Origin: Escherichia phage nithesis
Length of the DNA stretch: 64,000 nucleotides
Reading direction: 5' to 3' (one strand)
Sequence record: PV252060.1
Under the pieces are notes generated by a model. It was not told where the DNA came from, searched no databases, and saw nothing but the letters and a program-made list of their open reading frames with translations. Below, piece by piece: positions 2,279 to 31,700 of the stretch; the first letter of the stretch is position 1; each line of letters starts with the position of its first letter. The translations under genes and the position numbers were made by a program.

Positions 2279-2989
2279 ATGCAAAAATTATCGGAAGTAT
2301 ATCGTGGCTTGGCATTAAGTACCTTGAAGGGTACTGGTGCAGTCACCGATGACAGATTAGGCATTGAACCAGATAGTAAGCCAGAGATATTGGCTGCTAT
2401 TAATGAAGGGTTAGTTCGACTGCATAGTCGTTTCCCCCTTAGAACTAATAGCTGCATTGTGGAGATGAAGGAAGGTCGTACTGATTATCCCCTCCAATCT
2501 CGGTATGCTTACTCCAGATTTACTAAGCCTACTCTTGAGATTCAATATCCATACATCATGGATGGGTTCATGAAACCTTTCCAGGATGATGTTATTAAAA
2601 TCTTAAATGTGTTTGATAACTCAGGGAATCGCCGTAGACTTAACGACGATTCAGATCCCCATGCAATTTTCACCCCACGGCCTGATACTATTCAGTGTAT
2701 GCGACCTCGACACTTCGAGGCACTTAACGTAACTTATCAAGCTAAGCACCCAATACTTACGGGTGATGAAGAACAGGAAGTTGACTTAGCAGATACACTA
2801 ATGACAGCACTTCATAACTGGGTGGGTTATCGTTACCACACTGGTTTGAATACTCCGGAAGCTAATGCTAAGGCAGCAGAGTATCTGCAAACGTATGAAA
2901 GCATCTGTGGTGAGGTTGTTGATTACGACCTGGCTAATGGAAGTATTTCAATTACCGAAACTAAATTTGAACAACGAGGATGGCGATGA
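2279..2989 (+). CDS. virion structural protein, function unknown
   Basis: 236-aa ORF between terminase and tail fibre genes; 10-nt overlap with the next gene suggests translational coupling. Confidence 0.4.
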   Translation: MQKLSEVYRGLALSTLKGTGAVTDDRLGIEPDSKPEILAAINEGLVRLHSRFPLRTNSCIVEMKEGRTDYPLQSRYAYSRFTKPTLEIQYPYIMDGFMKPFQDDVIKILNVFDNSGNRRRLNDDSDPHAIFTPRPDTIQCMRPRHFEALNVTYQAKHPILTGDEEQEVDLADTLMTALHNWVGYRYHTGLNTPEANAKAAEYLQTYESICGEVVDYDLANGSISITETKFEQRGWR

Positions 2990-5900
2990 ACGCACATACC
3001 CCCTTTGATGCAAAACAGGATTGGACCAATCCATACTGCCAGAACAGTTCCAATGACCCAATGGTAGATGCACTACTTGGTAATGCTTACCATGTGGTTC
3101 GAACTGTGTACTGCAATCTTGGTAACCTCAAACTTCTGTATGATTTCCTGAACCAGTATGGAATGGTACTTGGTGTACAGTCTGAGGCAGAACTTAAGGC
3201 TCTAACCACTGAAGCTAAGTATGCCCGTATCTACGGTTTCTCCCGTGCAGGTGACCGTCAGATAACTGACTACCTTTATGTGGAAGGTGACCGTACCGGT
3301 ATCATTCCAGATGACCCAAAGGCAACTGGTTCATGGATTACCGTTGCTACTTCTGGTTCCAATGATAGTGGTACTTCCTCCGGTGAAGGTGCTTATATTC
3401 CATGGGTATATGCAAACGGTTCTGCTACTGGTGGTGAAACTACAATCAACGTACCAGATGGTACGGTGGGTGTACCTTTTATTATTGTTAATGGCGACAT
3501 GCAGTATGTAGGTCGTGGTTTTGAGTTTAATATTGACAGCCTGTCTGTAACTCTGGCTCAACCTCTGGAAGAGGGTGATGAAGTAGTATTCCTGCTGACT
3601 GGGGTTCCTGCTGTGCCAGATAACCCTAACGTTAGTGATTGGGTTCAGATCAACTGGTTATATAACAATGGTGCTGCTGTAGGTGGCGAGCAGGTTATTG
3701 CTATTCCTTATACCTTCCAGTCTGTTCCTGCTGTGTATAAGAATGGGCTTCGTTTATATAAAGGATTAACCACTGAGTCTTATACTGCTGACCCCGATAA
3801 CCAACGTATACTTCTTACTGAGTCACTGGCAACCGATGACCGGTTGATTGTACAGCTTGGTGGCGAGTCATGGGTATTTGAAGCATCAGACAGTACACTT
3901 CAAGAAGTGGCTCGTGCAGCTAACGTAAAAGACTCTGAAGTAATCCTTAGTACGGACACCACTCAGGTACTTAATGGTAAGAAGGTAATTTATGATGTAG
4001 TTTCCCAACGTATATACTGGTTACCTACCCTACCTACCAATGTTTATATCATCTCTGTCTCAGACGGACAGCTAACATATTCTCCTGGAAATATTACTGT
4101 TACTCTGCTGGATTCCTACCAGCAGCAGAATGCCAGAGAACTATGGCGACGTAACCTTGCTGAGGCCGGTTTAACTCTTGTCGATGGTAGCTTTGAAGAA
4201 GGTGTCACGGCGAACAGTGCAACTGATGCTGTTTGGCATATCGCTGGTGGGCAGTGTTACACGTGGGGTGGCGAATTTCCTAAAACTGTAGTACCTGGCT
4301 CAACTCCAGCAACAACTGGTGGGATTAGTGATGATGCATGGTTAAGTGTTGGTGATGTAAGTTTAAGAAGTGACCTGGCTGATGATGACGGAGTTGATTT
4401 AGTTAACGGAGCAGTCAAGGATAAAGATTTTGAGCTTTACAAAAGGCAATCAATTGCAAAAAATAGATTTAATTTCGCTTTTGGGAATAAATACTCAAGA
4501 AGCTTTAATAATAATTTGCGCTTACAGTTGCAAACTTATGTAGAGAATGTATTTAACTTTGCACCAAAAGCGGTGTCACTTCCGAGTGGGCGGGTGGTAT
4601 GTATCTACACAGTGAAGGATGGTGCTAATATTGACCCAGGACAGGACGGCACACCTATGCACATTGATTACCTAATATCTGATGATAACGGTGTGAACTG
4701 GACCACTGGAACTGTTGTTAACAAAGGACCAGGATATGCCACTTCTGAAACGGTACTATTCCTAAATAATCTTGATGGATATTTGTATTGTTTCTTTACA
4801 TCAATGAAGGGGATTACTGGGTGGGGACATGCACAACAAGGAACTAACCCTGACACAACATCAACTATTGAATATGTCATATCAAAAGATGGTGGCAATA
4901 CATGGAGCACCCCTGTTGATATTACGCCATTGGTTAAACCATCTGGTGCTTACTTCTCATCAATTGCACCTACACAAGTCGGGTACATAAATGGCAAGCC
5001 TGCAATTCCTTATTATTATTTAACTCAACTATCTACAGGAATAGTTGAGGGGTATATCACAGTTGATGATAGCGGTAACTACACCTACGGTGAAGATGTC
5101 AGGAAAGACACCGATGTCGATACGCTAGGAACTTCTGGCGGCGAGATTGGATTTGGCAATTTCTATGATGGAACACCTTTTGCAATTGAGCGTGCTGCCG
5201 ACACAACAATCAAACCGTATAAAATCGCAATACAAAAGCTATTAATGCAAGATTCTAGTGGAAAGTGGGTTGTAAAAGGACAGTTCCCTACCACTAACTG
5301 TATGGCGTCGTTCTTACGCGTTGGCCCTGATTATGGTTTTGATAAGGATTATCTCTTTGTTATCGCACCTGTTGGTCAATCAGGTAATTATGAAGGACGT
5401 GCAAACATTAGAGTATTCGACTGCTCTGACGATTTTAGCAATCCTATTGATCGCGGCATGATAACAGACACAAATGCTTTGGAGGCAGGTTACAGTTCAA
5501 CCGTGCTTCTATCTTCTGGTTCATTTATGAGTATGTGGAACGGTAGACAGTGGACGATTAGCAATTCAATTTACACTATTAACAGGCTTGCGGGCAACGC
5601 AATTATCCCTGTCCCGTTTTGTGGCACTATTAAAATTGTTGACATTAGAAAGACTTTTGCACCCGATTTAAGAACCAACGAGCGAGTGATTGGTCTTGCT
5701 GACGGCAAAGAATATACATGGAACGGTTCATCATTTGTGCTTGGTATTTCGTCACCAACGAAAACGCTAACAACTGAAACAACTACATTAGATGCCAACT
5801 CTTGCGACGTATTTTATCTCGACGCTGGAAGTAATGGGTCAGTGATAACGTCAATCACTGGTGGATATATCGGACAAAGGATATCAATACTTCCGTTATC

Positions 5901-6072
5901 CGGCAGCACTGTTGTGACGCTTTCAAGACAAGCGTCCGGCGTCTCTGTCACCGACAGAATTATGTATAATACAGAAACCGGGAAGACAAAATACAACACA
6001 AACGGGGAGATTGTAGAGTTAATAAAAACGAACTACGGATGGTATTTAAACAAATCAGCAAATGCATCATAA
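2980..6072 (+). CDS. tail fibre/tailspike with BNR/Asp-box (sialidase-like) C-terminal domain
   Basis: 1030 aa; two Asp-box motifs S-x-D-x-G-x-T/N-W (ISDDNGVNWTTG near nt 4675-4710; ISKDGGNTWSTP near nt 4880-4915); Gly/Ser/Thr-rich N-terminal half typical of fibres; hairpin terminator follows. Confidence 0.6.
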   Translation: MAMNAHTPFDAKQDWTNPYCQNSSNDPMVDALLGNAYHVVRTVYCNLGNLKLLYDFLNQYGMVLGVQSEAELKALTTEAKYARIYGFSRAGDRQITDYLYVEGDRTGIIPDDPKATGSWITVATSGSNDSGTSSGEGAYIPWVYANGSATGGETTINVPDGTVGVPFIIVNGDMQYVGRGFEFNIDSLSVTLAQPLEEGDEVVFLLTGVPAVPDNPNVSDWVQINWLYNNGAAVGGEQVIAIPYTFQSVPAVYKNGLRLYKGLTTESYTADPDNQRILLTESLATDDRLIVQLGGESWVFEASDSTLQEVARAANVKDSEVILSTDTTQVLNGKKVIYDVVSQRIYWLPTLPTNVYIISVSDGQLTYSPGNITVTLLDSYQQQNARELWRRNLAEAGLTLVDGSFEEGVTANSATDAVWHIAGGQCYTWGGEFPKTVVPGSTPATTGGISDDAWLSVGDVSLRSDLADDDGVDLVNGAVKDKDFELYKRQSIAKNRFNFAFGNKYSRSFNNNLRLQLQTYVENVFNFAPKAVSLPSGRVVCIYTVKDGANIDPGQDGTPMHIDYLISDDNGVNWTTGTVVNKGPGYATSETVLFLNNLDGYLYCFFTSMKGITGWGHAQQGTNPDTTSTIEYVISKDGGNTWSTPVDITPLVKPSGAYFSSIAPTQVGYINGKPAIPYYYLTQLSTGIVEGYITVDDSGNYTYGEDVRKDTDVDTLGTSGGEIGFGNFYDGTPFAIERAADTTIKPYKIAIQKLLMQDSSGKWVVKGQFPTTNCMASFLRVGPDYGFDKDYLFVIAPVGQSGNYEGRANIRVFDCSDDFSNPIDRGMITDTNALEAGYSSTVLLSSGSFMSMWNGRQWTISNSIYTINRLAGNAIIPVPFCGTIKIVDIRKTFAPDLRTNERVIGLADGKEYTWNGSSFVLGISSPTKTLTTETTTLDANSCDVFYLDAGSNGSVITSITGGYIGQRISILPLSGSTVVTLSRQASGVSVTDRIMYNTETGKTKYNTNGEIVELIKTNYGWYLNKSANAS

Positions 6073-6077
6073 CAACA

Positions 6078-6100
6078 AACCCCGCTTAGGCGGGGTTTTC
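6078..6100 (+). terminator. intrinsic terminator after tailspike 1
   Basis: CCCCGC-TTAG-GCGGGG hairpin followed by TTTTC. Confidence 0.6.
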
Positions 6101-6121
6101 TAGAAAAACAATGAGGTTTAC

Positions 6122-8419
6122 ATGAACGAATTATTCTCTCAAGGTGGTAAAGGCTCTACTGGTATTCTTACCAATAAACAAGCCATTGCCCGTAAGTTTG
6201 GTGTTAAACAGAATGAAGTGGTCTACTTTGCTGTAGGTGTAGACTTAGGTGGTTACAAAGTTATTTACGATAAGACTACCCAGCGTGCTTACTCATTACC
6301 CGCACTCCCAACAGGAACTACTGCTGTAAGCCTCAATGAACATGCAATCCTGATTCATTCAGCAGGTACAGTTGATTTGGGGGAACTGGCTGCTACACGT
6401 AGAGAGTTCGTGGTCCTGTCTGACACGTTTGCTACTGGTTTGGTAGTGAATACACGAAATGAATTATTATTTCATAATGGAGTAGGTTATACCTACTTAG
6501 GTACTCTACCTGTAACAATTACCACAGGAACTAATCCTGTAGGTAACACAGATTGGAAACCACAGACTGACCTTAATTTACGGGAAGAATTAGCGGCTGA
6601 CTTCGGTTATCAGCTAGTTCCGTCTGTGGAAAAGCAACGATGGCTTTACGCCGGGGACGTGCGTGCTTTTGGGGTTGTTGGTGATGGGTCTGATGAGGCA
6701 TCTAGTTTGCAGTTAGCCATTAACTCGGGTAATGTTTTTGTTCCCCCGGGCATGACGGTTTCTCATTCACAAGTCAACATACCAAAAGGTACGATTTTTA
6801 CTTTCGGTCATGGTGCTGGGTTGACATCATTGACTGCTAATGCTCTTAATTTCGTCAGCGAGAGCCAATTCAGCTTGCTTTCCCCTGCAGCTTCTGGAGC
6901 AACGTCCATCACATTAACATCTGAGGTGACAGGAACTGGGTATACCCGGGCTTTGGTAATACGCACTGAGGACACAAGTGACGCTTGGTATATCGCCAAC
7001 GCACAGAATCCGGATGTAATCGGATACCAAGGTGAATCTTTTTTAATATCGTCCATATCAGGTGCTACTGTAAATTTAGCAACGGCTTTACCGTGGGACC
7101 TAACTACCACCAATTCGATTATTTATCTTATAAAAGGCAACGCTACTAAGTTCATCGGGGGAATCTTAAAAAATGCTGCGTCAGGGTCTAGCTACATGTA
7201 CCAATCCGTGGGGGCTTCACTTATAGAGTTCCATGGTACTGCTTTTGATTATAATGGAAACGGCGGTTCAAGGCATGATAACGCGTACGGTGTGGTTTAC
7301 CACAACACTACCCATACCGGGCGTGTCGGAAATGGTAATATATTTTTTGGTTATGGATCTACAGATTGTACTGTCACGGGTACGACCCACATTGGAGGGA
7401 CCGGTGGGGATGCGCAAATAATATCTTACGCTGGCTGCCGTAACATCCGTACATCCCTTAACATCCTAAAACCTACAGCTAACAACGGGGGTATATATTT
7501 TGGTGCAAAAAGCTTCGACTGCAACACCCATGCTGATTATATTAAAGGCGGAAAGTATGGGGTTATGGGGGCATTTGGTGCTCAGCGTATTGTTGTGGAC
7601 TCGCTGGCGGCAGACGACCAAGTATCAGGCGCTATCTTTATGGAGCAATGCCAGAACTTTACCATCACAAACCCGTCTATTAGATTCGTAAGGACTGGCG
7701 CTCAAACAACCGCTGCGATATTAATTAAGGACTGCGATTATGTGACAGTGGATGCAAATGTCCCTGTAAATACAGGGGCGAACGGGTATATAGTCAGTAT
7801 GTATAGCGCTCCTGCATACGCCCTAACAGTTAGAAAAAATATAAACATTACGGTAAAAGGTACTGGCAGTGTATACCTTACTAGCCCTATGACCAATTTC
7901 TCGATTAAAGACTGTTTAACATCCGGCGGTATGACAGTTTACTACGCCAATGGTACGTCTACTTACGGCAAGGTTACGCGTAATAGTTGCCGGTTTTTAG
8001 TAGCTCAAAGTTTCCAATATTGTGACATAGATAGTAACACCATTGTGGGGGATTCTGATTCTGAGGGTATACGCCTTGGTGGTAACTGTAGATGGAACAA
8101 CGTATATAGAAACAAGGTTAGTGGGGTTACTACGGCATTCTTCGTTAACTCAGCACCCGCAAATCTATACACGAATGCGTTTCATGATGATAACGTAATA
8201 GATTACTCAACAGTAACCACCTTCGTATCATCTCAGACTGGAACCACCACACCAGTTACTGGAGTGTTAAACCCCGCTCCAGTGAGGAATTTCTTTCTCC
8301 CGGCAACAGGTTGGCAGGATAGCCCTACGGTAAAAAGAACTGTTAGTGGCTGGAGGCATAAAGGCACTACAACAGGCACAGCGTCTGATTGGTTTACTAT
8401 CCCCTCGTCAGAAGCGTGA
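6122..8419 (+). CDS. second tailspike / tail fibre, probable beta-helix depolymerase-type protein
   Basis: 765 aa; long Gly/Thr/Asn/Ser-rich repetitive sequence consistent with a beta-helix tailspike; located in the tail module; followed by a hairpin. Confidence 0.5.
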   Translation: MNELFSQGGKGSTGILTNKQAIARKFGVKQNEVVYFAVGVDLGGYKVIYDKTTQRAYSLPALPTGTTAVSLNEHAILIHSAGTVDLGELAATRREFVVLSDTFATGLVVNTRNELLFHNGVGYTYLGTLPVTITTGTNPVGNTDWKPQTDLNLREELAADFGYQLVPSVEKQRWLYAGDVRAFGVVGDGSDEASSLQLAINSGNVFVPPGMTVSHSQVNIPKGTIFTFGHGAGLTSLTANALNFVSESQFSLLSPAASGATSITLTSEVTGTGYTRALVIRTEDTSDAWYIANAQNPDVIGYQGESFLISSISGATVNLATALPWDLTTTNSIIYLIKGNATKFIGGILKNAASGSSYMYQSVGASLIEFHGTAFDYNGNGGSRHDNAYGVVYHNTTHTGRVGNGNIFFGYGSTDCTVTGTTHIGGTGGDAQIISYAGCRNIRTSLNILKPTANNGGIYFGAKSFDCNTHADYIKGGKYGVMGAFGAQRIVVDSLAADDQVSGAIFMEQCQNFTITNPSIRFVRTGAQTTAAILIKDCDYVTVDANVPVNTGANGYIVSMYSAPAYALTVRKNINITVKGTGSVYLTSPMTNFSIKDCLTSGGMTVYYANGTSTYGKVTRNSCRFLVAQSFQYCDIDSNTIVGDSDSEGIRLGGNCRWNNVYRNKVSGVTTAFFVNSAPANLYTNAFHDDNVIDYSTVTTFVSSQTGTTTPVTGVLNPAPVRNFFLPATGWQDSPTVKRTVSGWRHKGTTTGTASDWFTIPSSEA

Positions 8420-8436
8420 CTTATAGCTGTAAAACT

Positions 8437-8460
8437 AAGGCCCCAAATGGGGCCTTTTCT
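8437..8460. terminator. bidirectional hairpin terminator between convergent genes
   Basis: AAGGCCCC-AAAT-GGGGCCTT perfect hairpin with T-rich flank, between + gene ending 8419 and - gene ending 8460. Confidence 0.6.
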
Positions 8461-9113
8461 TATATAGAATTTACTGTTTGCATTACCCTAACCGATACTG
8501 CTGTTAAGGTTATTACTTGTCCTGATATATTAAACATACCCAACTGAATACCATCTACCATGAAAGGGTCAGATGAACCAAGTGTGTAAGTAGCTAGTAC
8601 GTTATCCCTATTAGCTATGTCCGTACCCTGTACCTTAACACTAGCATCTGAACCTACTACCGTAGTTCCATTGGTTCGTCTTGTTTGTGTTCTCCATTCT
8701 CTTGCTGTACCAGCACCTCCTGCAATAGTTCCTGAGATACGAACACTGAACATTACCTGGGTATTCCTGGTTCTAGCAGGGAACTTAAGATTACCCCCTT
8801 CAATCGTTAGTGCTGCTGTACCTCCTGGTGATTTAGTTATTCCTGGTAATGAAAAGTAATTGAACCAGGTCTGGTCATTTACTGCTTGGTTACCAGTCCA
8901 TGTATACAAGTCCAGAAGGAAAGTATCTTCTAACTCTGTTGGTGGGATGGGTAGTAGTTCAGGGGGAAGCTCTGAAACGTTATTAGCAGAAACTATTCGT
9001 TCCCCATAGCTTCCCACGACCAACAAACCACCCTTCATTTTGCACACAACATCCTTACCACTTTGGAAAATATCTTTAATAGACATAGTTACCTCGTAGT
9101 TGATACCAGACAC
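8460..9113 (-). CDS. hypothetical protein on opposite strand inside the late module
   Basis: 217-aa ORF in a gap with no + strand ORF; GAGGT Shine-Dalgarno 6 nt upstream of the ATG; Gly/Thr-rich, possibly tail-associated. Confidence 0.45.
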   Translation of the reverse strand: MSGINYEVTMSIKDIFQSGKDVVCKMKGGLLVVGSYGERIVSANNVSELPPELLPIPPTELEDTFLLDLYTWTGNQAVNDQTWFNYFSLPGITKSPGGTAALTIEGGNLKFPARTRNTQVMFSVRISGTIAGGAGTAREWRTQTRRTNGTTVVGSDASVKVQGTDIANRDNVLATYTLGSSDPFMVDGIQLGMFNISGQVITLTAVSVRVMQTVNSI

Positions 9114-9785: not shown

Positions 9786-10410
9786 ACAAAAACTTGCTGC
9801 GAAAGGTGGTGCAGTGGGAGGAGTTGTCGCTGCTATCCTGGGGGCAGTGTTCTATATGGAAGGGGGATATGTAAACAATCCTCGTGACCCAGGTGGGGAA
9901 ACTAATCATGGTATTACCCATGCAGTAGCTAAGTCTCACAAAGAAATTCTGGCCACTGAATACGGTTGGGATGGTTCTATGAAAGGTTTATCTAAAGAGA
10001 TGGCTGCTGAGATATATATTGATGACTACGTACTTAAGCCTAACTTCGTATCCTTCGCTGATATATCTCCTGCTGTAACACATAAGCTGGTAGATGCTGG
10101 TGTTAACACTGGTGTAACCCGTCCTGCTAAGTGGTTGCAGTTATCTCTTAATGAAATGTCCCGTAATGGCAAAGACTACCCTAAAATACAGGTTGATGGT
10201 AAAGTCGGTACAAGTACTGTTAATGCATATAAAGCATTACAGAAAAAACGAGGCAAAGTTGCAGCATGTCAGGTAATGATTAAGTTACTTGATGCCAAAC
10301 AACTGAACCACTACACCTCATTAAACATGCCAGACTTTACGTATGGTTGGGTAGCTAACCGAATAGGCAATGTGCCACTGGAGGCATGTAATGAAGATGC
10401 TAATCTCTAA
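9775..10410 (+). CDS. endolysin, GH108-type N-acetylmuramidase with peptidoglycan-binding domain; possible SAR N-terminus
   Basis: EGGYVNNPRDPGGETNHGIT matches the GH108 catalytic motif; N-terminal weakly hydrophobic Gly/Ala-rich stretch GGAVGGVVAAILGAVFY resembles a signal-arrest-release segment. Confidence 0.75.
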   Translation: MKAKQKLAAKGGAVGGVVAAILGAVFYMEGGYVNNPRDPGGETNHGITHAVAKSHKEILATEYGWDGSMKGLSKEMAAEIYIDDYVLKPNFVSFADISPAVTHKLVDAGVNTGVTRPAKWLQLSLNEMSRNGKDYPKIQVDGKVGTSTVNAYKALQKKRGKVAACQVMIKLLDAKQLNHYTSLNMPDFTYGWVANRIGNVPLEACNEDANL

Positions 10411-10897
10411 AGGTTGGCCTTATCTTCTGGTGGTGGTCCTAGGGACCACCATTTACTTTTGGGGCAATTCCAATGGGCAGTCTACTGTTCAAAAGAAGTG
10501 GGATGACCAAAAGGTTGAATATCAGAAGGCAATGCAAAAATTACAGGACAAATATAATGCTCTCCAAAGAAACCATAGTTATGAAGTCGGGTTACTCACT
10601 TCCCGGTTGCAGACGGCTGAGAGTAATTACGCAAGCGAGCTTGCTCGCGTTAGCAGTGATTACGACAGCCGGATGCAACAGTCTGAAAGACGAGCATCGG
10701 TATATAAACGTCAAGCCGAAGCCGGAACCTTTGAGTGCAGAAGTCTTGCAAGCCATGCAGCCAGACTCGACAACAGTCTTGAAGAAGGCAGACGTTTGGT
10801 TGAAGAACTCAGGGCAACTGTTAGACTCCGTGACAGCCAACTAATTGAGTTGGGTAAACAGATTCAGGCTGACCGTAAACTTTTTGAACAGGAATAA
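10391..10897 (+). CDS. i-spanin (Rz-like)
   Basis: N-terminal transmembrane helix ([16 protein letters not shown]) then charged coiled-coil-like periplasmic domain; directly after endolysin; start moved to internal Met. Confidence 0.55.
10581..10844 (+). CDS. o-spanin (Rz1-like lipoprotein) embedded in the i-spanin gene in another frame
   Basis: Embedded ORF with basic n-region, hydrophobic region ending in a T-A-G-C lipobox-like motif, and a proline-rich mature part (KPKPEPL). Confidence 0.5.
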   Translation: MKSGYSLPGCRRLRVITQASLLALAVITTAGCNSLKDEHRYINVKPKPEPLSAEVLQAMQPDSTTVLKKADVWLKNSGQLLDSVTAN

Positions 10898-17607: not shown

Positions 17608-20262
17608 ATGGGTTTATTCAGTGGGAAGACCAAAGTATACGTAGCATCCTCTGTCTATAACATGGCAGGGGATATACACAAACGTCCCAACTATATGAAG
17701 ACTGTAGTCATCGGTAACATTGTTTCCAATACAGGATTCACTATGGCAGACACTATCTCTGATAGTTATCTGAATGGACCGGGTATTCGTATGCGACTGT
17801 TCTCTAGCTGGAGTAAGAACCACTATGATTCAGAAGTTGGTATGGCTGGCTCTTCATTAGGTGTACTGGCTAAGATTGACCCTACTGTTATAGAGGGTCA
17901 AATTACACCACCTGCTGGAGAGTCCGTCTATGTTCAGGCAGCAGAGATTGGTTTTGCTGACTTTGAACAATGGTGTGACCAGTATCTTTATGAGAATGCC
18001 CCAAGTCGAATCATGGAACGATTCGATATAGACATTGATGAAGATACTAATGAAATTACTATGACCTCCCTGGATGGAGGTTCTACTATTAAATTCACAC
18101 CTACTAACTTTGAACCAGGTGCTTTGTATCTCTATGCTGATTACTCGTTTTACAAGTCCCCCTCTATCAATCCACCTGTAGTAGGGCCAACTACTGTCTA
18201 TGATGATGAGGATGACTTACCCTCTACTTTGCTATGGACTACTGTATCAAGTGATACAACAGCCAATACAACTAACCTTACTAAGATTATACATACTCAT
18301 TCTGTTTACTCTGATGGTAGACCGGATGAAGATAGTACCGTCACGGAACCAAGTGTAGATAACTGGAACTCTTACGTTAAGGTCTACCGTAGAGGGTTTA
18401 CTGAGAAACCTGATGGTGTGACTGTGGTTGTATCTGACAGGGTAATGACTCATAAAAAGTTTGGTGAGGTTCAATCCAGTACCACTGTAACTACCAATGT
18501 AGTTGATATAGGTGGAGGAGTTACTCGTACTGACACAATCACTACAACCACAGAGACACTGGTTCGTAAGTATTCCTCCCAGACTACTCGTACAGATACA
18601 GAGATGACTGCTGTTGGTACACCTAAGATGCTTATCTATAAGCAGAACTCTGGTAACGTTGCACTGGATTCACTGTTTGAGACTGAGGCTACTGACAACC
18701 GATTCTACCCATTCATCCCAATCAGGAATGATAAACGATGGGTAGAGAATGACCCAATATACCCTCACTGTAAGAAAGCTCTTTATAAAGCTACAGGTGG
18801 TAAGCTCAATAATGTAGTAACTGAGCTTAAGAAGAATAAGGATATAGGAGATATCCAATACATTTATGGCACATTCGGTGTATCTCTTAATACCCCAGAA
18901 GATACTGCTAAAGAATACATCTACCGTTTCTTTCAGATGGCTACTGAAGCATTCCCACCTGACCCAACCTACCCTACATTGGAAGCAGTGATTGCAGGTT
19001 ATCAGGCAGCTAATGATGCAGTTGATGCATACGTAAAATGGTGGAACGAGGGGGTAAATCAGGTAGTTGGAACACCCCCACCACTGCCAGAATACCCTGT
19101 CATACCTAAGCGAGAGTTTAGGGTACATAGTAATAAGCAGTACAAGTATGACATGACTATTGGCTGGAATTACGTGTCTGAAACTACTCACTCAGGGCAA
19201 GCATGGTCTGGTGCTAAGCAGGGGCAACTTCGATCCAGGTATGCAGGAGATATAACCCTTACCCGTAAGAACATACGTACTGCTAGTAACTCTGGCTCAA
19301 CTAAGAAGCTGGAGGTTACTACTACATTTTACTCTATGCAGGAATACGAACTGCTTTGGCAGGATGGTAATAATACCTACCGTAAACTTAGGGTACTGGG
19401 CCTAAACCACAATAACAGGGTATATAAAAATAAGTCAGTGCATATTGATGTTGCCGGGGCAATGGGTGATGCAGAGGAGAGTGGATTTATTATTCCACTG
19501 CATACTAACATCTATCGTTCAATGTCACTGGTTCGAAGTACTCAGTTATCCACTGCCTGTTCCTACTTAGTGATGAACTCATATAAGAAGGTTAAGCAGA
19601 AGTGGTATCAAACATCTGCTTTTAAAATTGTGGTTGTTGTAGTTGCTGTCGTTGTATCCGTATTCACTATGGGTGCTGGTGGTGCAGGTATACTTGGAGC
19701 ATATGGTGCAGTTGGTGCATCACTTGGCTTTGTTGGATTAGCTGCCGTGATAGTTGGTGCTGTAGCAAACGCTATTGCTGGAATGATTCTGGTATCCATT
19801 ATTACAAAAGTATCCACTGCACTGTTCGGTGATAAACTGGGCTTTATTATTGCAGCTATTGCTTCGATGGTAGCTATGAATGTTGGTACTGCATTGTCTA
19901 CTGGTACATCTCTGTCTACCTTAGCCAGTGAGATGATGAATGCCCAAAACATCATGCAGCTTACCAGTTCAGTTGGTAATGGTATTAGCCAGTATATTAA
20001 TGCATCTACGGCTGCTACTATTCAGAAAGCAGAGAAAGTAATGCAGCAGTACAATACTGATATGATGGCAATCAATAAGCAGTATGAAGAGATGTTTGGT
20101 ACTGCTGGACAGGGCGTAATTGACCCTATGCAATTCGTGTCAATGGAGTCACTGGATTCTTTCTTATCCCGTACACTTATGACTGGTTCGGATATAGCTG
20201 ACATGTCTTTAAACATGGTTGGCAGCTTCTCTGACATGACCCTTAATACTGATCTTGTTTAA
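17608..20262 (+). CDS. large virion protein with C-terminal Gly/Ala-rich multi-transmembrane region (putative internal/ejection protein)
   Basis: 884 aa; C-terminal 150 aa contain consecutive hydrophobic segments (VVVVVAVVVSVFTMGAGGAGILGAYGAVGASLGFVGLAAVIVGAV...). Confidence 0.45.
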   Translation: MGLFSGKTKVYVASSVYNMAGDIHKRPNYMKTVVIGNIVSNTGFTMADTISDSYLNGPGIRMRLFSSWSKNHYDSEVGMAGSSLGVLAKIDPTVIEGQITPPAGESVYVQAAEIGFADFEQWCDQYLYENAPSRIMERFDIDIDEDTNEITMTSLDGGSTIKFTPTNFEPGALYLYADYSFYKSPSINPPVVGPTTVYDDEDDLPSTLLWTTVSSDTTANTTNLTKIIHTHSVYSDGRPDEDSTVTEPSVDNWNSYVKVYRRGFTEKPDGVTVVVSDRVMTHKKFGEVQSSTTVTTNVVDIGGGVTRTDTITTTTETLVRKYSSQTTRTDTEMTAVGTPKMLIYKQNSGNVALDSLFETEATDNRFYPFIPIRNDKRWVENDPIYPHCKKALYKATGGKLNNVVTELKKNKDIGDIQYIYGTFGVSLNTPEDTAKEYIYRFFQMATEAFPPDPTYPTLEAVIAGYQAANDAVDAYVKWWNEGVNQVVGTPPPLPEYPVIPKREFRVHSNKQYKYDMTIGWNYVSETTHSGQAWSGAKQGQLRSRYAGDITLTRKNIRTASNSGSTKKLEVTTTFYSMQEYELLWQDGNNTYRKLRVLGLNHNNRVYKNKSVHIDVAGAMGDAEESGFIIPLHTNIYRSMSLVRSTQLSTACSYLVMNSYKKVKQKWYQTSAFKIVVVVVAVVVSVFTMGAGGAGILGAYGAVGASLGFVGLAAVIVGAVANAIAGMILVSIITKVSTALFGDKLGFIIAAIASMVAMNVGTALSTGTSLSTLASEMMNAQNIMQLTSSVGNGISQYINASTAATIQKAEKVMQQYNTDMMAINKQYEEMFGTAGQGVIDPMQFVSMESLDSFLSRTLMTGSDIADMSLNMVGSFSDMTLNTDLV

Positions 20263-22763: not shown

Positions 22764-25700
22764 TTGAACAGGAATCATGCTATGTCAACATTTGACCGTC
22801 TGGCAGGTTTCGCAGACAGCATCACTACTGCTAAGCAAGTCGATGTCTCTACTGCAACCTCTCGGAAACAAGCTGAACAAGGGCAAAACCCTTTCCAATT
22901 AACTCCTCAGAATGCCTACCAATTACAGGCAGGTCGTGCTGGTAACTTAGGTGCTGGTGCATTTGACCTAGGTTCTATTCAGGCAGATTTTACTAATGCC
23001 TCTCCTCTTGAAATCATAAACAAATATGGCAATGAGCAAGGAATGGACATTCTCAATGCCCGTGTCAATGCAGCTAATGCTGTTCGTCGTGATTTAACTA
23101 AGAGTCGTACATATGGTGAAGCACTTGGTGATACCCTCTCTGGTGTTGGTCTTGGTGTTGCTAATACCCTTGGGGGCATTGCTGCTCTTGGTACAGGTTT
23201 GGTCAATGATAATGCCGGGGCATCCATTGCTTCCGGTCTTGACTGGTTAAACAAAGGTGTACACAACCTACAGTCTGATGCATTGAATGCTCGTCGTAAT
23301 GTAGTACAGAACCAGAACGTAATATCTGCACAGGAAAATGAGAAACTCTATAAGCAAGATGTTGCTAAAGGAGAAAGTGAACTCGTTGCATCCTTATCTC
23401 GTATTGGTCGTGATGCTTATGATTCTGTTGCTAATACTTTGTCCAATGGCATGGCTGCTACAGATGGACTGGCTGAGGGTGTTGGTTCTCTGTTTACTGG
23501 TGGCCCACTTATCCGTGGTGTATCTGCGCTCGGTAAAGTAATGGTAGGTGGTGATAAAGCTGTTAAGGGTATTACCCTAGCTGCTGAGTTAGGTTCACGT
23601 CCTGCACGTACTGCATTAGCTACTGGTCATGTTGCTGCACCTGCTATAGCAATTGGTGGTATGGAAGCTGGTGGTGCATACCAACAGACTGCTAATGAAA
23701 TTATGGAAATGCCATTCAGTGAGTTGGCTGCTAAATCTCCAGTATACCAACAGCATATTAAAGATGGTTTATCTCCTGAAGAAGCACGTCGTCAGACTGC
23801 ATCTGAAACAGGTATCACTGCTGCTGGCTTAACTGCTCCGGTTGCTGCTCTTACTGGTCCACTGGTATCCAAGTTTGAACTTAATCCACTTAAAGTAGGT
23901 TCATTGGCTGGTGCTGGTTCTAACATGCTGCGTGAGACTGTAGAAGAAGGTATCCAGTCTGGTACAAGTCAGTTTGCACAGAACAAAGCAATTCAGGGTA
24001 ATGTAGATGCTAATCGTGATTTGCTTAAAGGTGTGGGTGAACAAACTGGTCTTGGTGCATTGTATGGCTTTGGTTCTGCTGGAGTTGCTCAAGCTCCTGG
24101 TGCAACTGTTAAGGCTGCTGGTGCTGCCGTTGGTCCTGCTGTACGTACTACCCTGGCTGGTGCTTCTCTGGCTGGTAAGGCATTAGTAAAAGCTGCCTCC
24201 CCTATTACTAACATTCTGGTTCAACGTGGGGAAGAAATAGCCAAACGTAATGAACAAGCATCCCCTGTATCAGATGCTACGGTTAACGCTGCTGCACAAG
24301 AAGCTACTGCTCAGGCAGAACAAGCACAAGCAATTGTTCAGGAAGCAGTAGATGCAATGGATATTTCTCCTGAAGAGAAAGCTGCTGCTACTCAGTATGC
24401 TGCTGACTTAACTCAGGCGATGAAGTTCGACCCAGTAGAACTGGAACAAGCTAGTCCTGCAATCCATGAAGCTGTTTCTGGTTCCACTAACCGTGTTGAA
24501 GCTATTCAGAAGATGGCTGACTTGGTTAATACTGCTGAAGACCCTAATGTTCAAATGGAAGCTGCAATCCAGATGTATGACAACATCATGTCTATGGATA
24601 GCTTCATTAACCGTGACCCAGGTGCATTAGCTAATCTGGAACAAGGTTCTCCTGCTGCTAATATTGTTGACCAGTTCTCTGGTCTGATGGCTAACGTTCA
24701 GAATACACCAAAGGTACTTCGTGCATTCCGTGCTATTCATTCTATGATTCAGGAACAGGCTGAAGCAGGTAAACTGAAAGCTACTGAGGAAGCCAACCAA
24801 GCTCAGGCAAACAATATTGCTATGGCTGCTGATATGTCTCCAGAAGTACTGGATGCAGATTCAGTGAACATGGTTCTGAAACATGCAAGTGAAGGTAAGA
24901 TTACACTGGGGAATCGTCAGCGTGCTGCCCTGCAATCTGCTGCTGCTCTATTGCAAGGAGCACGAGAATTTGACGCTAAAGCAGAAGAACTAGGCTTACG
25001 TCCTCAAGACATTGTTAGTAAACAGATTAAAACCGACGAATCTCGTTCTAATGAAGGCCAGTACTCTGCGTTGCAACATGCTAAACGCATTCGTTCTGCG
25101 TACAACTCTGGTAACTTCGATTTGGCTTCCGCTTATCTCGACGACTTTATGAAGTTCGCCCAGCACATGCAGAATAAGGTCGGAGCGTTGAATGAGCATC
25201 TGATTTCTGGGAATGCGGATAAGAATAAGTCTGTCCATTATCAGGCTCTTACTCCCTCCCGTGAATGGGTACGTAGTCGTACTGGCCTCGGTATCAATCC
25301 GTATGATACCAAGTCTGTTAAGTTTGCCCAGCAAGTAGGACTGGAAGCCAAGACCGTAGCTGATATTGCTAACGCACTTGCTACGGCTTACCCGGAGCTT
25401 AATGTTTCTCATGTGAAAGTTACCCCATTGGATTCACGTCTGAACAAGCCTGCTGCCCAGGTAGTTAAAGAGTTCCGTCAGGGCAATCTTGATGCTGCTC
25501 AATCCCAACAGACCAATGAACCAGTGAATCAGGTTGATGAAACTCCTGTTACGAAACAGGAACCAGTTACCCCTACTGTACAGACTAAACCCTCTGTTAG
25601 TGAAGCTGTTAAAACAGAACCTACTATTAAAGAGTCTAAACCACAGACTGTAAAAGAACCTGAGAATCAGTCTGAAAAACAGGATGTCATCGAGAAGTCT

Positions 25701-28700
25701 ACTGAATCTGAAAGGGATACTTATGTGAAAGAGAATACTATTTCACAGGAAACCCTTAATAAGTATGGCGACCGTAAAGAGAGTCCTTGGCTCTTCGCAG
25801 ATGGTACTGTTGTTGGTTCTAATGGTGACCATATCAGTCTGTCCGATGTGTTTGGGCATGATGGTTATCGCGATATGTCTATGGACACTGGTGCTGTTCG
25901 CTCTACCTTCTACAAAGGAAGTGAGCAACCATTTGTATCATTGCAACTGTTTGATAATCAGAAGCTGACTGCTGAACAATTCAATACTGTTCAATCATTC
26001 GTAGAAGCAAACAATGCACTGATTCAGATTGGTGTAGATATGTCTGGGCGTAATACCAATAACGTTGAAAAAGAAGAAGTATCACTGGCTCAACTGAAAG
26101 CAGACTATACCGTTGGTGGTAAACCTCTATCGGAAATGGAAACAGTGTTCCCTGTCTATAACAATGACAAAACACCGAACCAGTTCCTTAAAGCATTTTC
26201 TCTGCCAGAAGAACCTAAGTCCCGTACCATTGGTTCTGAGTCTCCTTTGACTGATGTTAAGAAAGCACTGTCTTCTGCTGCTCGCTTTGAAGCATTCACT
26301 CAAAAAGAAAATAACGCTCTCACAAATGATGTGATTAAGCGTTATCAGGACTTGTTTGATTTTGGTGAAACTTTGAAGACTACTCTGTCTGACCGTCTGG
26401 CTAAGTTCCTTGCTAACAAGAACGTTGGTAAACGTTTTGTAGAAGGTACTGAGGCTAACCGTTGGGTAGGTGGTAAGTTACTTAACATCGTTGAGAAAGA
26501 TGGTGATACCTTTAAGTTCAATGACCAGTTGTTAGAGACTGCTGTACTTGCTGGTCTGCAATGGCGATTAACTGCTACACAGAATGCTGCTGTTAAAGAC
26601 GTGAAAGACGTAGCTGCTATTACTGGTGTAGAAGCATCTCTGCTACCAGAAGGCATTTTGGCTGACTTCGAAAATGCTCAGACATTGGTTGAAGCTACTA
26701 ACTCACTGGCTCAAAAGATTGAATCTTATTGGGGTTTAAATCGTAATCCTAATGCACCACTGGGTTATACCAAGGGTATCCCAATGGCAATGGCTACAGA
26801 GATTCTGTCTTCTCTCATTGAAATGGGTGAAGTTAAAGAGTCCATGCTGGATGTATCTGAGATTGACCCAGAATCTAACAAGACTGTTGGTCTGTATACC
26901 ATTGAGAAGTTAGATGATAACGATGCCATTAACAAATTCCCTACTGCTATTGAAGAAGCTGTTCTCGTAGAACCAGTAGAGAAATTGTACCTGGGTGATG
27001 ATATTCCTTCCGTGGCTCAAACTCAGTTACGTAACCCGGCTGTTAAGAATACCCCGGAACAGAAAGCTGCTCTTAAAGCTGAGCAGGCTACTGAGTTCCG
27101 TGTACATATGCCGATGGTTAACTTCTACGAAGCATTAGGTCGCGACAATATTCTGGAATTGATGGGTGCTGGTGCTCTTAATCCAGAATTGTTGAATGTG
27201 AATACTGCTAAGTCTCTGGAAGGTAAAAACCTGTCAGTGTCTATGGCATATGATTCTTTGTTTGGTGTAATCAACCAGATTAAGGAACAAGAGAATGGTC
27301 TGGATACACCTATTCACTACGGTTACAACATGACCCGTGTAGGTCGTATGCAGATGCTTGGTAAGAACAACCCACAGTCCAGCAAGTTGGTTCGTGAAGC
27401 AATTCTGCCAACCTTCTCTACTATCGACTTGAGTAATGAAAACAGCCAAACGTTCTCTGATTTCCAGTTAGGTCTGGCTCAGGCATTGGGTATCAAAGTT
27501 CATAAAATGTCCCGTGAAGTTATGTCAGATGAGCTGACTAAAGCTCTGGAAGGTAAACTGAAGCCTGCTGTTGATATGATGGTTGAGTTTGATAAGTCTG
27601 GACACTTACCTACCAATGCAGTGGATATTCTGAAGACTTCTTTGGGAAGCGATAAATCATTCGTAGCTCTTATGGCTCTTATGGAATATGCCCGTTATCT
27701 GAATAGTGATGACCGTGCCAACTTTAATACCCCACTGTACGTTGAAGCCGATGGTGTAACCAATGGGCCAATCAACGCAATGGTATTAATGACTGGTGGT
27801 AAGTTCACATCAGACTGGATTAAGAATACTGCTAAGGGGGGTTTGTTCTTTGGTAAAGCTGGCAAGACTATGAACGAGCATCATTCGCATGAGGACAGTG
27901 TTGACCTGTATGAAGCATCCACTAATAATCTACAACAGGCACTGAATGAATTACGCAATACTTACCGTAACAACGTTCCTGTTATGAACCAGATGAATCA
28001 TCTCCAGAAATTAATGGATTTGTTCATTAAAGACTTCAATCTTAATGAAGATGGTACTCTGGACCTGAAACGTGGTATTGCTAAAAACCCACTGACTATT
28101 ACCATCTATGGTTCTGGTGCTCGTGGTATTGCAGGCAAGATGGTTAGTGCAATTACTGATGTCATCTATGAACGCTTTAGTGACGTTCTGCAAGCTCGTG
28201 CTGCTGACCCTAGCATTTCTCCAGCTATGGCTATGTTTGGTAAGGAGGCTGCGTCTGAGGCCGATGCTCAGGCTATGCTGGATACTTTCCTTACTTCTAT
28301 GGAAGCACTGACTGGTAATGTTCCGGTTATGCGTAAAGGGGAGTTGTCTATTCAACAAGTAGAAGGTGCTCTGACTGGTAAGTTAAATCCCCAGAAGTTT
28401 ACTGTATCTGGGAATGCTCTGAAGAACTTGCAGGAGAATATGCTCCATCTGTTCGTTGAACCAATGCGTACTGGTATCCGAAATACTGTTGGTGAGGGTT
28501 TGATGCATTCTACTGAGAATTTGCAGAAGGCTACTCAGATTCAATCTCTGGTATTGCAGGATATGTTCCAGCAAGCAGTACAGGCTAAGCTGGCAGAAAA
28601 AGAAAAAGACCCAACGTGGAAAAAGGGTGATTTCTTAACACAGAAAGAACTGAATGAAATCCAGAATAGCTTAGCTCCACTGGCTCCAATGATTGAGACT

Positions 28701-31700
28701 GGTTCACAAACTTTTTATATTGCAGGTAGTGAGAATACTGATGTTGCTAACCAGGTTCTGGCTACCAACTTGGATGACCGTATGCGTGTGCCAATGAGTA
28801 TCTATGCTCCGTCACAGGCAGGTGTTGCAGGTATTCCATTTATGACCATCGGTACAGGTGATGGCATGATGATGCAGACCCTTTCTACTATGAAAGGTGC
28901 TCCAAAGAATACCCTGAAAATCTTTGATGGTATGAACATTGGTATCAATGACATTACTGATGCAAGTCGTAAAGCTAATGAGGCTGTATATACTTCCTGG
29001 CAGGGGAACCCTATCAAGAATGTTTACGACTCCTACGCTAAGTTCATGAAGAATGTAGACTTCAGCAAACTGTCTGATGAAACCAAACAGGCTATTGCCA
29101 AGTCTGCTCTGGAATACGACCAGCGTGAGGGTGCTACTGATGACCTGTTACGTGTTGGTGCTGAACAGATTGAACGTAACCTACGTAACATTGCTCTGGG
29201 TGTAGATATTCGTCACAAGGTAATGGACCAGGTGCAGGTCACTGTTGACCAGATGGCTGCTGTTGGTGCTCCTTATGTGAACAACGGTAAAATCTCTCTG
29301 GAAGGCCTTACTGTAGACCAGCAAGTAGCTAAGCTGAACGAACTGTTTGATGCTGAATTAAACAAGCGTCGTGATGCAGTGCGTGCTACTAAAGCAGAAC
29401 CAGTAAAAGAAGTACCTGCTATGGAACAGTTTGGTCGTGTACTGAAGTCTGGTGTACGTCTGCTGTCTAATACTGCCATTGCTAAACTGGCTAAAGAGAT
29501 GTCTCCTGAACAGCAAGCAGTATTGAAAGAAATACAGAAATCCCTTGCTGCTAAAGACTATAAAGTTGTTTATGGTACACCTTCTCAACTGGATGCCTAC
29601 GCTATTGAGAAGAATATTACTCGCCCAGCACCAGAAGACATTGAAGCTGCCGAAGCAGGTAATGCATATGGCTGGACTAACTTTGAAGATAAAACCATCT
29701 ATTTAGTTACCCCTTCCTTAGAGACTCTGGTTCATGAATTGGTACATGCTTCTACTTTTGAATCTGTACTGGCTCACTATGAGGGTACTCCTAATGAAGC
29801 AGTCCAGAATATTGAAGACCTGATGAACCAGTTCCGTACTCTGGATGTTAAGGATGAATCTCCGGTAGTACGTGAAGCATATGCTGATGCACTCAATACC
29901 ATTAATGGTCACTTGTCTAATGGTTTTATTGAACCAGCAATGGCTAAAGCTGCTGCACTGAATGAGTACATGGCTTGGGGTTTAACCAACCGTGAACTGA
30001 TTGGTAAGCAGAAGAAAACTACTGCACTTAAAACTATGGTTCAGGCTGTATATGAAGCAATCAAGCGTCTGGTATTCGGACGTAAGAAAGCTCCGGCTAA
30101 TGCAGATGATATGTTCTCTGGTTTACTGTTTAACTCTGCTGTAGTAATGCGTGGACAAGCTCCTACTGCTGCTGTAGCCAAAGACACTACTCTGTTCCAT
30201 AACAAAGCATATGGTGACAATACTCGTCTGGAAGAGCTAGGGAAAACCTTCGATAAGCTGATTACTGACTACATTGGTTCAGAACCAGTACAGCAAGTAA
30301 TTCGTAAAGGTAAGTTCTCTGATGCAGTAGTGAATGCAACTAAAGTAACCCGTGATGTTCAGGCTCATGGCTTCACCATGAATATGCAGGAACAACGTCT
30401 CTTTACTAACATTGTTGCTGCACTAGCTACCGAGGCTGCTATTAATCCAGCTGCTCTGGCTCGTGCACAGGAATACTACACACACGTTACTAAGAACCTG
30501 ACCGTCGAAGCATTCATGGCTGACCCAGATAGTACTAACCCTGCTGACCGTTATTATGCACAGCAGAAGTTCGATACCATCATGGGTGCTAACAACATTG
30601 AGTTTGATGCACAGGGTCGTTCTTCCTTACTGCCTACCTTTGTAGGTCTGGCAATGGTAAGTGAGGAAGTACGTAAGGTACTGGCTGACATTCCTGTTAT
30701 GAAAGCAGATAAGAAATCTGGCAATACTGTTGATGCAATGCTGACTAACATCGGTACTGCTGCAATGGCTAGTCTGAATGCTCGTGTAGCAGGTGATACT
30801 AAAGCTACTAACGTACAGGAAGGTATGGATGCACTGGCTCAGACAATCATGCAGACCAGTCTTAATGCAGAGTCTTTCTATGATTCAGTTGCTACCCCTA
30901 CCGGTAATGCTATTGACCGTGCTAACCAGTATCTGGTGGATTCTATTGATGTACTGTCTACCCGTGCTTTGGAAGGTGCTCGTGAAGTTGCAGCTAATAC
31001 CAAGAACCCACTGGTTAAAGGTGCTGCTCATGCTGCACAACTGGTAGCTGCTATTGCTACAGAGAAGAATGGTTCAATCGTAGCCGAAGGTGTTATGACT
31101 GCAATGAACCAGGGTAAAGTATGGCAACCTTTCCATGACCTGGTTAATGACATAATCGGTCGTACTAAGAGCAATGCTTCTGTATATGACTTGATTAAGG
31201 CAGTACGTGCACAGGTACAGGCTGACCGTCAGCAGTTCCGTGAACACTTGCCTACCACTATCGCATCTAAGTTCAGCCGTAAGCTGACTAATGATGAGTG
31301 GAAAGCAATGCATACCGGTATGGGTAAAACTGACTTAGCTGTTCTGCGTGACACTATGTCTCTGGATGAAATCCGTGACCTACTGTCTGACCAGAAAATT
31401 GTTGACCGTGAGGTTAATAAACTGGAAGCAGATTTGCAGAAACAAGCAGGACGTAACTGGCCTCTGATTAATCGTAAATCTAAGCAACTGGCTCAGTACA
31501 TGATTAATGGTACTGTTGGTAATAACCTGCTGCGTAATGCTACTGCAATTTCTCGTTTGCTGGGTGAACGTAAGACTACCAGTTCTATCGTAGATGTAGC
31601 TCAACTGGATAAACTCATTACCCTGTATGCACTAGAAGCAATGAATAAGACTGACCGTGAGATGTTATCTTCACTGGCTCAGACAGAAATTGAAGGTATG

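Follow-up and report, generated by a model that had tools for sequence, protein, structure and literature searches.

The two large adjacent genes that follow the tail adaptor gene of Escherichia phage nithesis (sequence record PV252060.1) raise the question of whether they encode two separate enzymatic fibres or two arms of a single receptor-binding apparatus. The window, that is the whole stretch of 64,000 nucleotides (nt) that was analysed, carries them on the + strand as open reading frames (ORFs) at 2980-6072 (P1, 1030 amino acids, aa) and 6122-8419 (P2, 765 aa), exactly as in an initial annotation made from the sequence alone, which had proposed a sialidase-like glycosidase next to a separate beta-helix tailspike. 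The two products very probably make up a branched apparatus with which a G7C-like podophage (genus Gamaleyavirus) binds its receptors, with a beta-propeller on the anchor arm and a beta-helix on the branch arm. The N-terminal ~400 residues of P1 would attach to the tail and offer a docking platform, its distal end would bear a GH33-like six-bladed propeller and a C-terminal beta-sandwich, and P2 would dock on P1 via conserved N-terminal domains and present a beta-helix depolymerase body. The two distal modules most likely recognise, and probably degrade, different polysaccharides of the host surface (O-antigen or capsule); in combination they would open the virion's way to the outer membrane and would jointly set the host range.

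The genomic setting is that of a G7C-like podophage of the N4 family (Gamaleyavirus, Schitoviridae). Positions 9000-33000 of the window are 93-95% identical at the nt level, over 99% of their length, to the phages ShWW44, ECBP1, St11Ph5, ZQ2 and EC1-UPM, and the features annotated beneath these matches include the virion RNA polymerase and the portal. P1 and P2 are neighbours that follow the terminase and adaptor genes, as is typical of loci for G7C-type complexes, and the window shares with the gp66/gp63.1 locus of the Gamaleyavirus G7C the genus-level backbone, the gene order and a gp66-type anchor. No phage record covers at least 80% of the 5.4-kb P1-P2 region, the Gamaleyavirus matches being limited to the 5' parts of both genes.

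These 5' parts encode the domains by which the two proteins can be placed in the virion. P1 (2980-6072, +) is an anchor tailspike of the gp66 type with a sialidase-fold distal module and matches PHROG 12242 ('tail protein') over aa 3-451 (E 8.5e-288). Searches with phmmer against the PDB and with tblastn assign aa 1-401 (2980-4182, +) to the virion-attachment and branching regions of gp66, Moo19 gp82 and B2 gp49. In the phmmer searches, aa 1-477 matched Moo19 gp82 (9d80_D, E 1.7e-172) and aa 16-377 matched B2 gp49 (9d83_D, E 2.2e-141), while aa 303-476 matched the N-terminal domains of the CBA120 tailspike protein (TSP) TSP4 and aa 140-378 matched TSP2, a homology to XD-type domains with E values of 1.7e-27 (5w6h) and 4.4e-27 (6w4q). 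Over the first ~400 residues, tblastn gave 84-86% aa identity to Gamaleyavirus anchors, among them those of EC1-UPM and UE-S5a. A Tail_spike_N domain follows at aa 402-459 (4183-4356, +; Pfam PF18668, E 4e-16).

P2 (6122-8419, +) is a second tailspike of the gp63.1/TSP1 type, whose N-terminal docking domains (aa 1-160; 6122-6601, +) are homologous to those of G7C gp63.1, CBA120 TSP1/3/4 and B2 gp48. Against the PDB, phmmer aligned its aa 1-214 with gp63.1 (4qnl, E 8e-55), its N-terminus with CBA120 TSP1 (4oj5, E 9e-53) and aa 1-180 with B2 gp48 (9d84_A, E 7.5e-52). Furthermore, P2 aa 20-173 (6179-6640) are paralogous to P1 aa ~308-482 (3901-4425), with 28% identity and E 9e-19. The domain set repeated in the two proteins is shared by Gamaleyavirus and Ackermannviridae spikes and is likely a substrate for recombination between spike genes.

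Solved templates for the attachment and branching of P1 and P2 are provided by B2 gp49/gp48 and Moo19 gp82 (PDB 9d80-9d84; PMC11654681); in the same study, B2 gp48 co-purified with gp49, and the structure of the complex was determined. For G7C, a passage of PMC8825819 that cites Prokhorov 2017 describes a stable two-branched complex of gp66 and gp63.1, in which binding of gp63.1 requires the XD3 domain of gp66. Because P1 and P2 are homologous to G7C gp66/gp63.1 and to the solved B2 gp49/gp48, P2 most likely hangs on P1, the two proteins being arms of one branched complex rather than separate fibres. The beta-helix that the initial annotation had seen in P2 is retained under this arrangement, but its independence as a fibre is not. 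Independent attachment of each protein to the tail would be compatible with separate genes that have their own start codons and with a hairpin in the spacer between them; P2, however, has no counterpart of the first ~300 residues of P1 and carries instead docking domains of the gp63.1/TSP1/gp48 type, which in homologues bind the anchor spike, and independent fibres appear very improbable. Beyond the attachment regions the templates differ from the window: B2 gp49 is, unlike P1, a bare adaptor without a distal enzyme, and the Moo19 and B2 spikes are esterases, neither of them a propeller or a beta-helix depolymerase.

The distal part of P2 is predicted to form a right-handed parallel beta-helix, the fold of tailspike depolymerases, over aa ~204-675 (6731-8146, +), which would constitute a polysaccharide depolymerase body. 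Sequence searches of Pfam, NCBIfam and the PDB returned no match beyond aa ~214. Fold comparison (values in brackets) related this part to the AlgE4 epimerase (30.4), the phiK64-1 depolymerase S2-4 (28.2), APK16 gp47 (27.8) and Det7 gp208 (26.6), and further to CBA120 TSP3 (26.5), CBA120 TSP2 (25.9) and the K5 lyase (25.9). The model argues for a depolymerase-type beta-helix with a putative depolymerase role. Polar residues that are invariant in the P2 alignment include D284, D287, D376, R384, H385 and D430. An O-antigen deacetylase like G7C gp63.1 might be considered instead, since the N-terminus of P2 is closest to gp63.1 and several Schitoviridae typically carry tailspikes that are esterases (PMC11654681). 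The homology to gp63.1 nevertheless stops at ~aa 214, the remainder models as a beta-helix that does not match the catalytic part of gp63.1, and no Pfam esterase domain was found in P2. G7C gp63.1 bears an esterase module where P2 bears a beta-helix; the gp63.1-type esterase was rejected for the distal part, and a deacetylase is extremely unlikely.

On the anchor arm, P1 aa ~524-887 (4549-5640, +) are predicted to fold as a six-bladed beta-propeller, the architecture of the GH33 sialidase family. The AlphaFold2 model of the distal module (aa 467-1030), built on the alignment of its homologues, has a mean predicted local distance difference test (pLDDT) value of 70.6, with values mostly of 85-95 in the propeller core. 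A family profile of the distal module matched sialidases in the PDB around the Asp-boxes with E values down to 8e-12, and hhalign aligned the profile of the P1 clade to a canonical sialidase-like set with a probability of 99.4% (E 1e-21, 321 aligned columns). The initial annotation had counted two canonical Asp-boxes in the C-terminal half of P1; one of them, SKDGGNTW (aa 635-642; 4882-4905, +), follows the strict SxDxGxTW pattern and lies in a region that aligns with the part of C. perfringens-type sialidases holding their Asp-boxes, while the other, SDDNGVNW (aa 567-574; 4678-4701, +), is only near-canonical, with N instead of T. Shuffling P1 20,000 times yielded the strict motif 0.0011 times per shuffle and at least two motifs of a relaxed pattern ([ST]xDxGxx[WFY]) in 0.9% of the shuffles; the Asp-box motifs are real and non-random. 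Both lie within aa 566-677, where Pfam gives a weak BNR_2 match, and inside the predicted sialidase-type propeller. A structure prediction missing the propeller or the beta-helix had been named as the finding that would overturn the initial annotation; both folds were predicted, and it stands on this point.

Whether the propeller could act as a sialidase was addressed with a MAFFT alignment of 31 propellers, comprising the P1 clade, a distant group of tailspike proteins that includes ECML-4 gp189 of a Kuttervirus, and nine canonical BNR/sialidase-like proteins containing the RIP motif. Seven columns characteristic of GH33 were followed: the RIP arginine, the aspartate acid/base, the glutamate partner of the nucleophile, the arginine 16 residues after it, the third arginine, the tyrosine nucleophile and the glutamate that holds the first arginine. 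All seven are kept in the nine canonical sequences, bar one alignment gap, and in the distant tailspike group, where isolated exceptions occur in the homologues P0035 and P0036. In the P1 clade (P1 with P0011-P0034), D552, E722, R738, R807 and Y838 are invariant in 19 members down to 39% identity. Y838, E722 and D552 align with the canonical columns of the tyrosine nucleophile, its glutamate partner and the aspartate acid/base, R738 and R807 with those of the second and third triad arginines, and R738 sits 16 residues after E722, matching the canonical sialidase-like spacing. The remaining two columns differ: both MAFFT and hhalign place F527 (motif FAP) at the RIP arginine and N854 at the stabilising glutamate, and each of the ten tabulated clade members has Phe, Tyr or Gln at the first and Asn, His or Asp at the second position. 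At a further column, K80, all nine canonical sequences have arginine, the P1 clade has lysine (K546) and most of the distant tailspike group has a hydrophobic residue. R856, two residues after the position of the lost glutamate, was considered as a stand-in for the RIP arginine; the idea is weak because R856 is not conserved (Gln in P0030 and P0034, Ser in P0012).

Judged by its sequence, the P1 propeller lacks the RIP arginine and so is no canonical sialidase; the beta-propeller glycosidase of the initial annotation is borne out in its predicted sialidase-type fold and in D552, E722, R738, R807 and Y838, but not in this residue. Most likely it is a retaining glycosidase that acts on an acidic sugar and has a remodelled carboxylate pocket. 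Tyr838 and Glu722 would form the nucleophile pair, Asp552 would serve as the acid/base, and Arg738 and Arg807 would hold a sugar of the ulosonic-acid type. Its specificity probably differs from that of classical sialidases, since the RIP arginine and its glutamate partner are replaced, and the remodelled pocket of the P1 clade predicts a non-classical substrate. A tentative extension is that the clade represents distinct tailspike-borne GH33-like enzymes in which the first triad arginine and the glutamate clamp were replaced together, the retaining machinery was kept and a new specificity arose, which might for example be the endo-cleavage of ketosidic linkages of 3-deoxy-D-manno-oct-2-ulosonic acid (Kdo), or of a nonulosonic acid other than N-acetylneuraminic acid (legionaminic or pseudaminic type), inside O-antigen or capsule. 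If this were true, the P1 clade could supply a sequence and a fold for phage ketosidases, which the older literature describes biochemically and which are not known to have been assigned a gene.

Comparison with characterised enzymes places the propeller close to GH33 in mechanism and apart from it in detail. With the GH33 exo-sialidases C. perfringens NanJ (8uvv), M. viridifaciens sialidase (1eur) and Hz136 (6mnj) it shares Asp-boxes, the aspartate, the Glu/Tyr pair, the second and third arginines and the 16-residue Glu-to-Arg spacing, at only 17-19% identity. It differs from them in the replacement of the RIP arginine by Phe, Tyr or Gln, of the holding glutamate by Asn, His or Asp and of the arginine in column K80 by lysine, and in its place on a phage tailspike, where an additional beta-sandwich follows at the C-terminus. 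The GH58 endosialidases (K1F; phi92 gp143, 4hiz) are, like P1, tailspikes with a sialidase-like propeller and two Asp-boxes. They also provide a precedent for an incomplete arginine triad, and they lack both the tyrosine nucleophile and the aspartate. P1 keeps these two residues and has no sequence or Pfam match to GH58 and no Pfam signal of the stalk/beta-barrel or of the C-terminal chaperone.

It is against this background that a classical sialidase has to be considered, either an exo-sialidase or an endosialidase of the K1F/phi92 type acting on K1 or K92 polysialic acid. The Asp-boxes and the sialidase fold of P1 speak for it, as do the annotated endosialidases that UE-S5a and other Gamaleyaviruses bear on the same anchor and the 'exo-alpha-sialidase' annotation of Kuttervirus relatives. 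The RIP arginine, however, is absent from P1 and kept in every canonical sequence compared, K546 stands where these have arginine, and no endosialidase family or Peptidase_S74 chaperone was matched in Pfam at E <= 0.1, nor any family in NCBIfam. A classical sialidase is improbable, and a GH58 endosialidase was rejected, as neither PF12217-PF12219 nor a C-terminal Peptidase_S74 domain was matched in P1 in this Pfam search. Alternatively, the propeller might be a non-catalytic, lectin-like receptor-binding head that has the sialidase fold without its activity, as in henipavirus attachment proteins. This rather unlikely alternative would accommodate the replacement of the RIP arginine and the stabilising glutamate across the whole clade, in which the residues proposed for catalysis are invariant, and, according to PMC8825819, what the distal part does in spikes of the G7C gp66 type is generally not established.

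Several observations weigh against a branched complex with two active enzymes. We infer the physical complex, its trimeric state, the catalysis and the substrates, and the first two are read from homologues only. No catalytic residues could be assigned in P2, so that hydrolase, lyase and binding-only roles are all compatible with its beta-helix. The RIP arginine, a defining residue of sialidases, is missing in the P1 propeller, and catalysis could therefore be impaired or different. The Pfam domain BNR_2 (PF13088) scores 26.8 bits at P1 aa 566-677, below its gathering score of 31.4; precomputed Pfam lists of P1 homologues do carry PF13088. The model is poor for the neck and for a portion of the last blade, with pLDDT values below 50 at positions 1-53, 365-369, 390-394 and 398-420 of the modelled fragment. 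In the literature searched, no activity, receptor or host was reported for either module or its close homologues, and no biochemical study was found of a GH33-like tailspike other than endosialidases. The branched apparatus follows a known plan: the P1/P2 region corresponds to the branched tailspikes of G7C and CBA120 and is ordinary for the genus, apart from the arginine-deficient propeller clade.

Relatives of the propeller that retain the classical residues are found on tailspikes as well. Kuttervirus-type relatives are ~30% identical to P1 over the propeller, have the same C-terminal domain and occupy a tailspike position adjoining vriC; unlike the P1 clade, they keep the full GH33 set, including the arginine of a 'YRMP' motif and the stabilising glutamate. 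One of them, Sajous1 gp139, has been detected in virions by mass spectrometry. As a separate observation, these proteins belong to a second, distant group of tailspike-borne sialidase-fold proteins (P0035-P0046, including ECML-4 5317-7551), the Kuttervirus members of which are annotated 'exo-alpha-sialidase'; a biochemical study of these Kuttervirus spikes was not found.

The C-terminal domain that accompanies the propeller is a predicted beta-sandwich of ~130 aa with the motif GGYxGQ...GW (P1 aa ~901-1030; 5680-6069, +), for which the model shows strands at fragment positions 435-557 with pLDDT values of 55-84. It is kept in every tailspike-borne sialidase-fold protein examined, including ECML-4 gp189, and may serve in trimerisation, folding or carbohydrate binding. 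Two of 12 relatives weakly match Pfam PF25692 (Phage_depo_C, 'Phage depolymerase C-terminal beta sandwich'; E 2e-4), and a sequence search of the PDB returned no match to the domain.

The P1 module is rare and widely mounted. A word-indexed search of 5.8 billion clusters returned only 19 homologues of aa 467-1030 (P0001-P0019), and a profile of the propeller alone gave 944 matches at E <= 1e-3 among 1.84 billion cluster representatives, 16 of them at E <= 1e-30; the P1 clade itself is small, with 9-10 representatives at E <= 1e-95. The homologues are mounted on Tail_spike_N, the T7 tail-fibre N-terminus, the P22 head-binding domain or PF12571, and the module is spread over at least five adaptor types, a variety that marks it as an exchangeable module for receptor binding. 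In the Sashavirus BDX09P1 the module is 82% identical to that of P1, and the host of this phage was not mentioned in the literature searched, a strain-level host-range preprint included. Further homologues occur in Providencia and Morganella and are probably prophage-borne, the locus having been inspected only for the E. coli homologue. Searches of 5,426 complete E. coli genomes with the P1 module (blastn, 'distant' setting) and with the DNA of the E. coli prophage homologue P0013 (megablast) returned no match, and no O- or K-type can therefore be linked to the module.

Only the N-terminal anchors of P1 and P2 are conserved with other Gamaleyaviruses, in which the same two scaffolds carry an endosialidase and a K5 lyase; in UE-S5a, an anchor homologous to that of P1 is annotated as bearing the endosialidase. 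Together with distal modules that have been swapped and are found on five or more other types of adaptor, this agrees with the host-range region that the initial annotation had placed here. The comparison of P1 with G7C gp66 covers the anchor; distally, P1 carries the GH33-fold propeller.

Both distal modules co-occur in the Agtrevirus (Ackermannviridae) phages PC3, PH4 and RPN242, which differ from the window in being myophages with four-spike complexes and different anchors. P1 aa 467-1030 are 98.8% identical to the C-terminus of Agtrevirus TSP4 (RPN242 gp163) and P2 aa 161-765 are 98% identical to TSP1 (RPN242 gp160), the whole P2 gene having 86-97% nt identity. Along the window, positions 4264-6097 are 95.7-95.8% identical to PC3, PH4 and RPN242 at the nt level, the 5' end of P2 (6101-6585) 86% and positions 6654-8735 92-97%, with 96-97% for the rest of P2. 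The gap at 6586-6653 corresponds to a 24-aa segment of the P2 neck (aa 154-177, EELAADFGYQLVPSVEKQRWLYAG) that is missing from Agtrevirus TSP1. In P1, the identity to RPN242 and PC3 begins at 4264 (aa ~429), and this recombination breakpoint lies inside the Tail_spike_N domain, in agreement with the conserved recombination motifs reported at the ends of anchor domains (PMC10408124). According to the AV101 paper, PC3/PH4 and RPN242 have identical tsp clusters, and no receptors of these Agtrevirus spikes were reported in the literature searched.

The extent of the shared block also points to the direction of the exchange. It runs 316 nt past the stop codon of P2 (8420-8735; counterparts at 10248-10562 in PC3 and 18416-18730 in RPN242), through a terminator hairpin and into the 3' end of a convergent gene (8460-9113, -; 217 aa), of which it includes the 3' 275 nt. 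This gene belongs to the Gamaleyavirus backbone, since its product is 95% identical at the aa level to that of Bp4 orf14. In PC3 and RPN242 the corresponding stretch is an unannotated, shortened remnant with only a 33-codon ORF left. Because a remnant of a Gamaleyavirus backbone gene is found in Agtrevirus phages, the sequences indicate a transfer in which the Agtrevirus lineage received the P2 cassette from a podophage of the Gamaleyavirus kind.

That a podophage shares a pair of receptor-binding modules at ~96% nt identity with myophages from a different family cleanly exemplifies the recent exchange of host-range cassettes, and this directional, cross-family sharing of both modules and the arginine-deficient GH33-like tailspike clade are the points of some interest at this locus. 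The region determines the host range of a lytic coliphage whose genus serves in work on therapy and biocontrol, and the exchange points at ~aa 429 of P1 and ~aa 178 of P2 show engineers where to cut.

The neighbouring genes complete the picture of the locus. Upstream of P1 lie the large terminase gene (662-2272) and a gene for a tail adaptor or virion protein of 236 aa (2279-2989, +), the last 10 nt of which are also the first of P1. The protein matches Pfam SU10_adaptor with 27.2 bits (gathering score 27) and PHROG 2125 ('virion structural protein') with E 2e-91, and its Bp4 counterpart is orf10, annotated as N4 gp68-like. Bp4 shows a matching gene order of terminase, N4 gp68-like protein, tail protein(s), tail spike and convergent orf14. 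A G+C-rich hairpin is found in the P1-P2 intergenic spacer (6077-6098), and a terminator-like hairpin with a T-run lies 3' of P2 between the convergent genes (8437-8456, +). A G+C-rich hairpin stands directly 3' of each spike gene, and both are situated inside blocks common to the Agtrevirus phages. Further downstream, a + strand ORF of 3590 codons with a TTG start (22764-33536) is the counterpart of the N4-type virion RNA polymerase that is annotated in the Gamaleyavirus matches.

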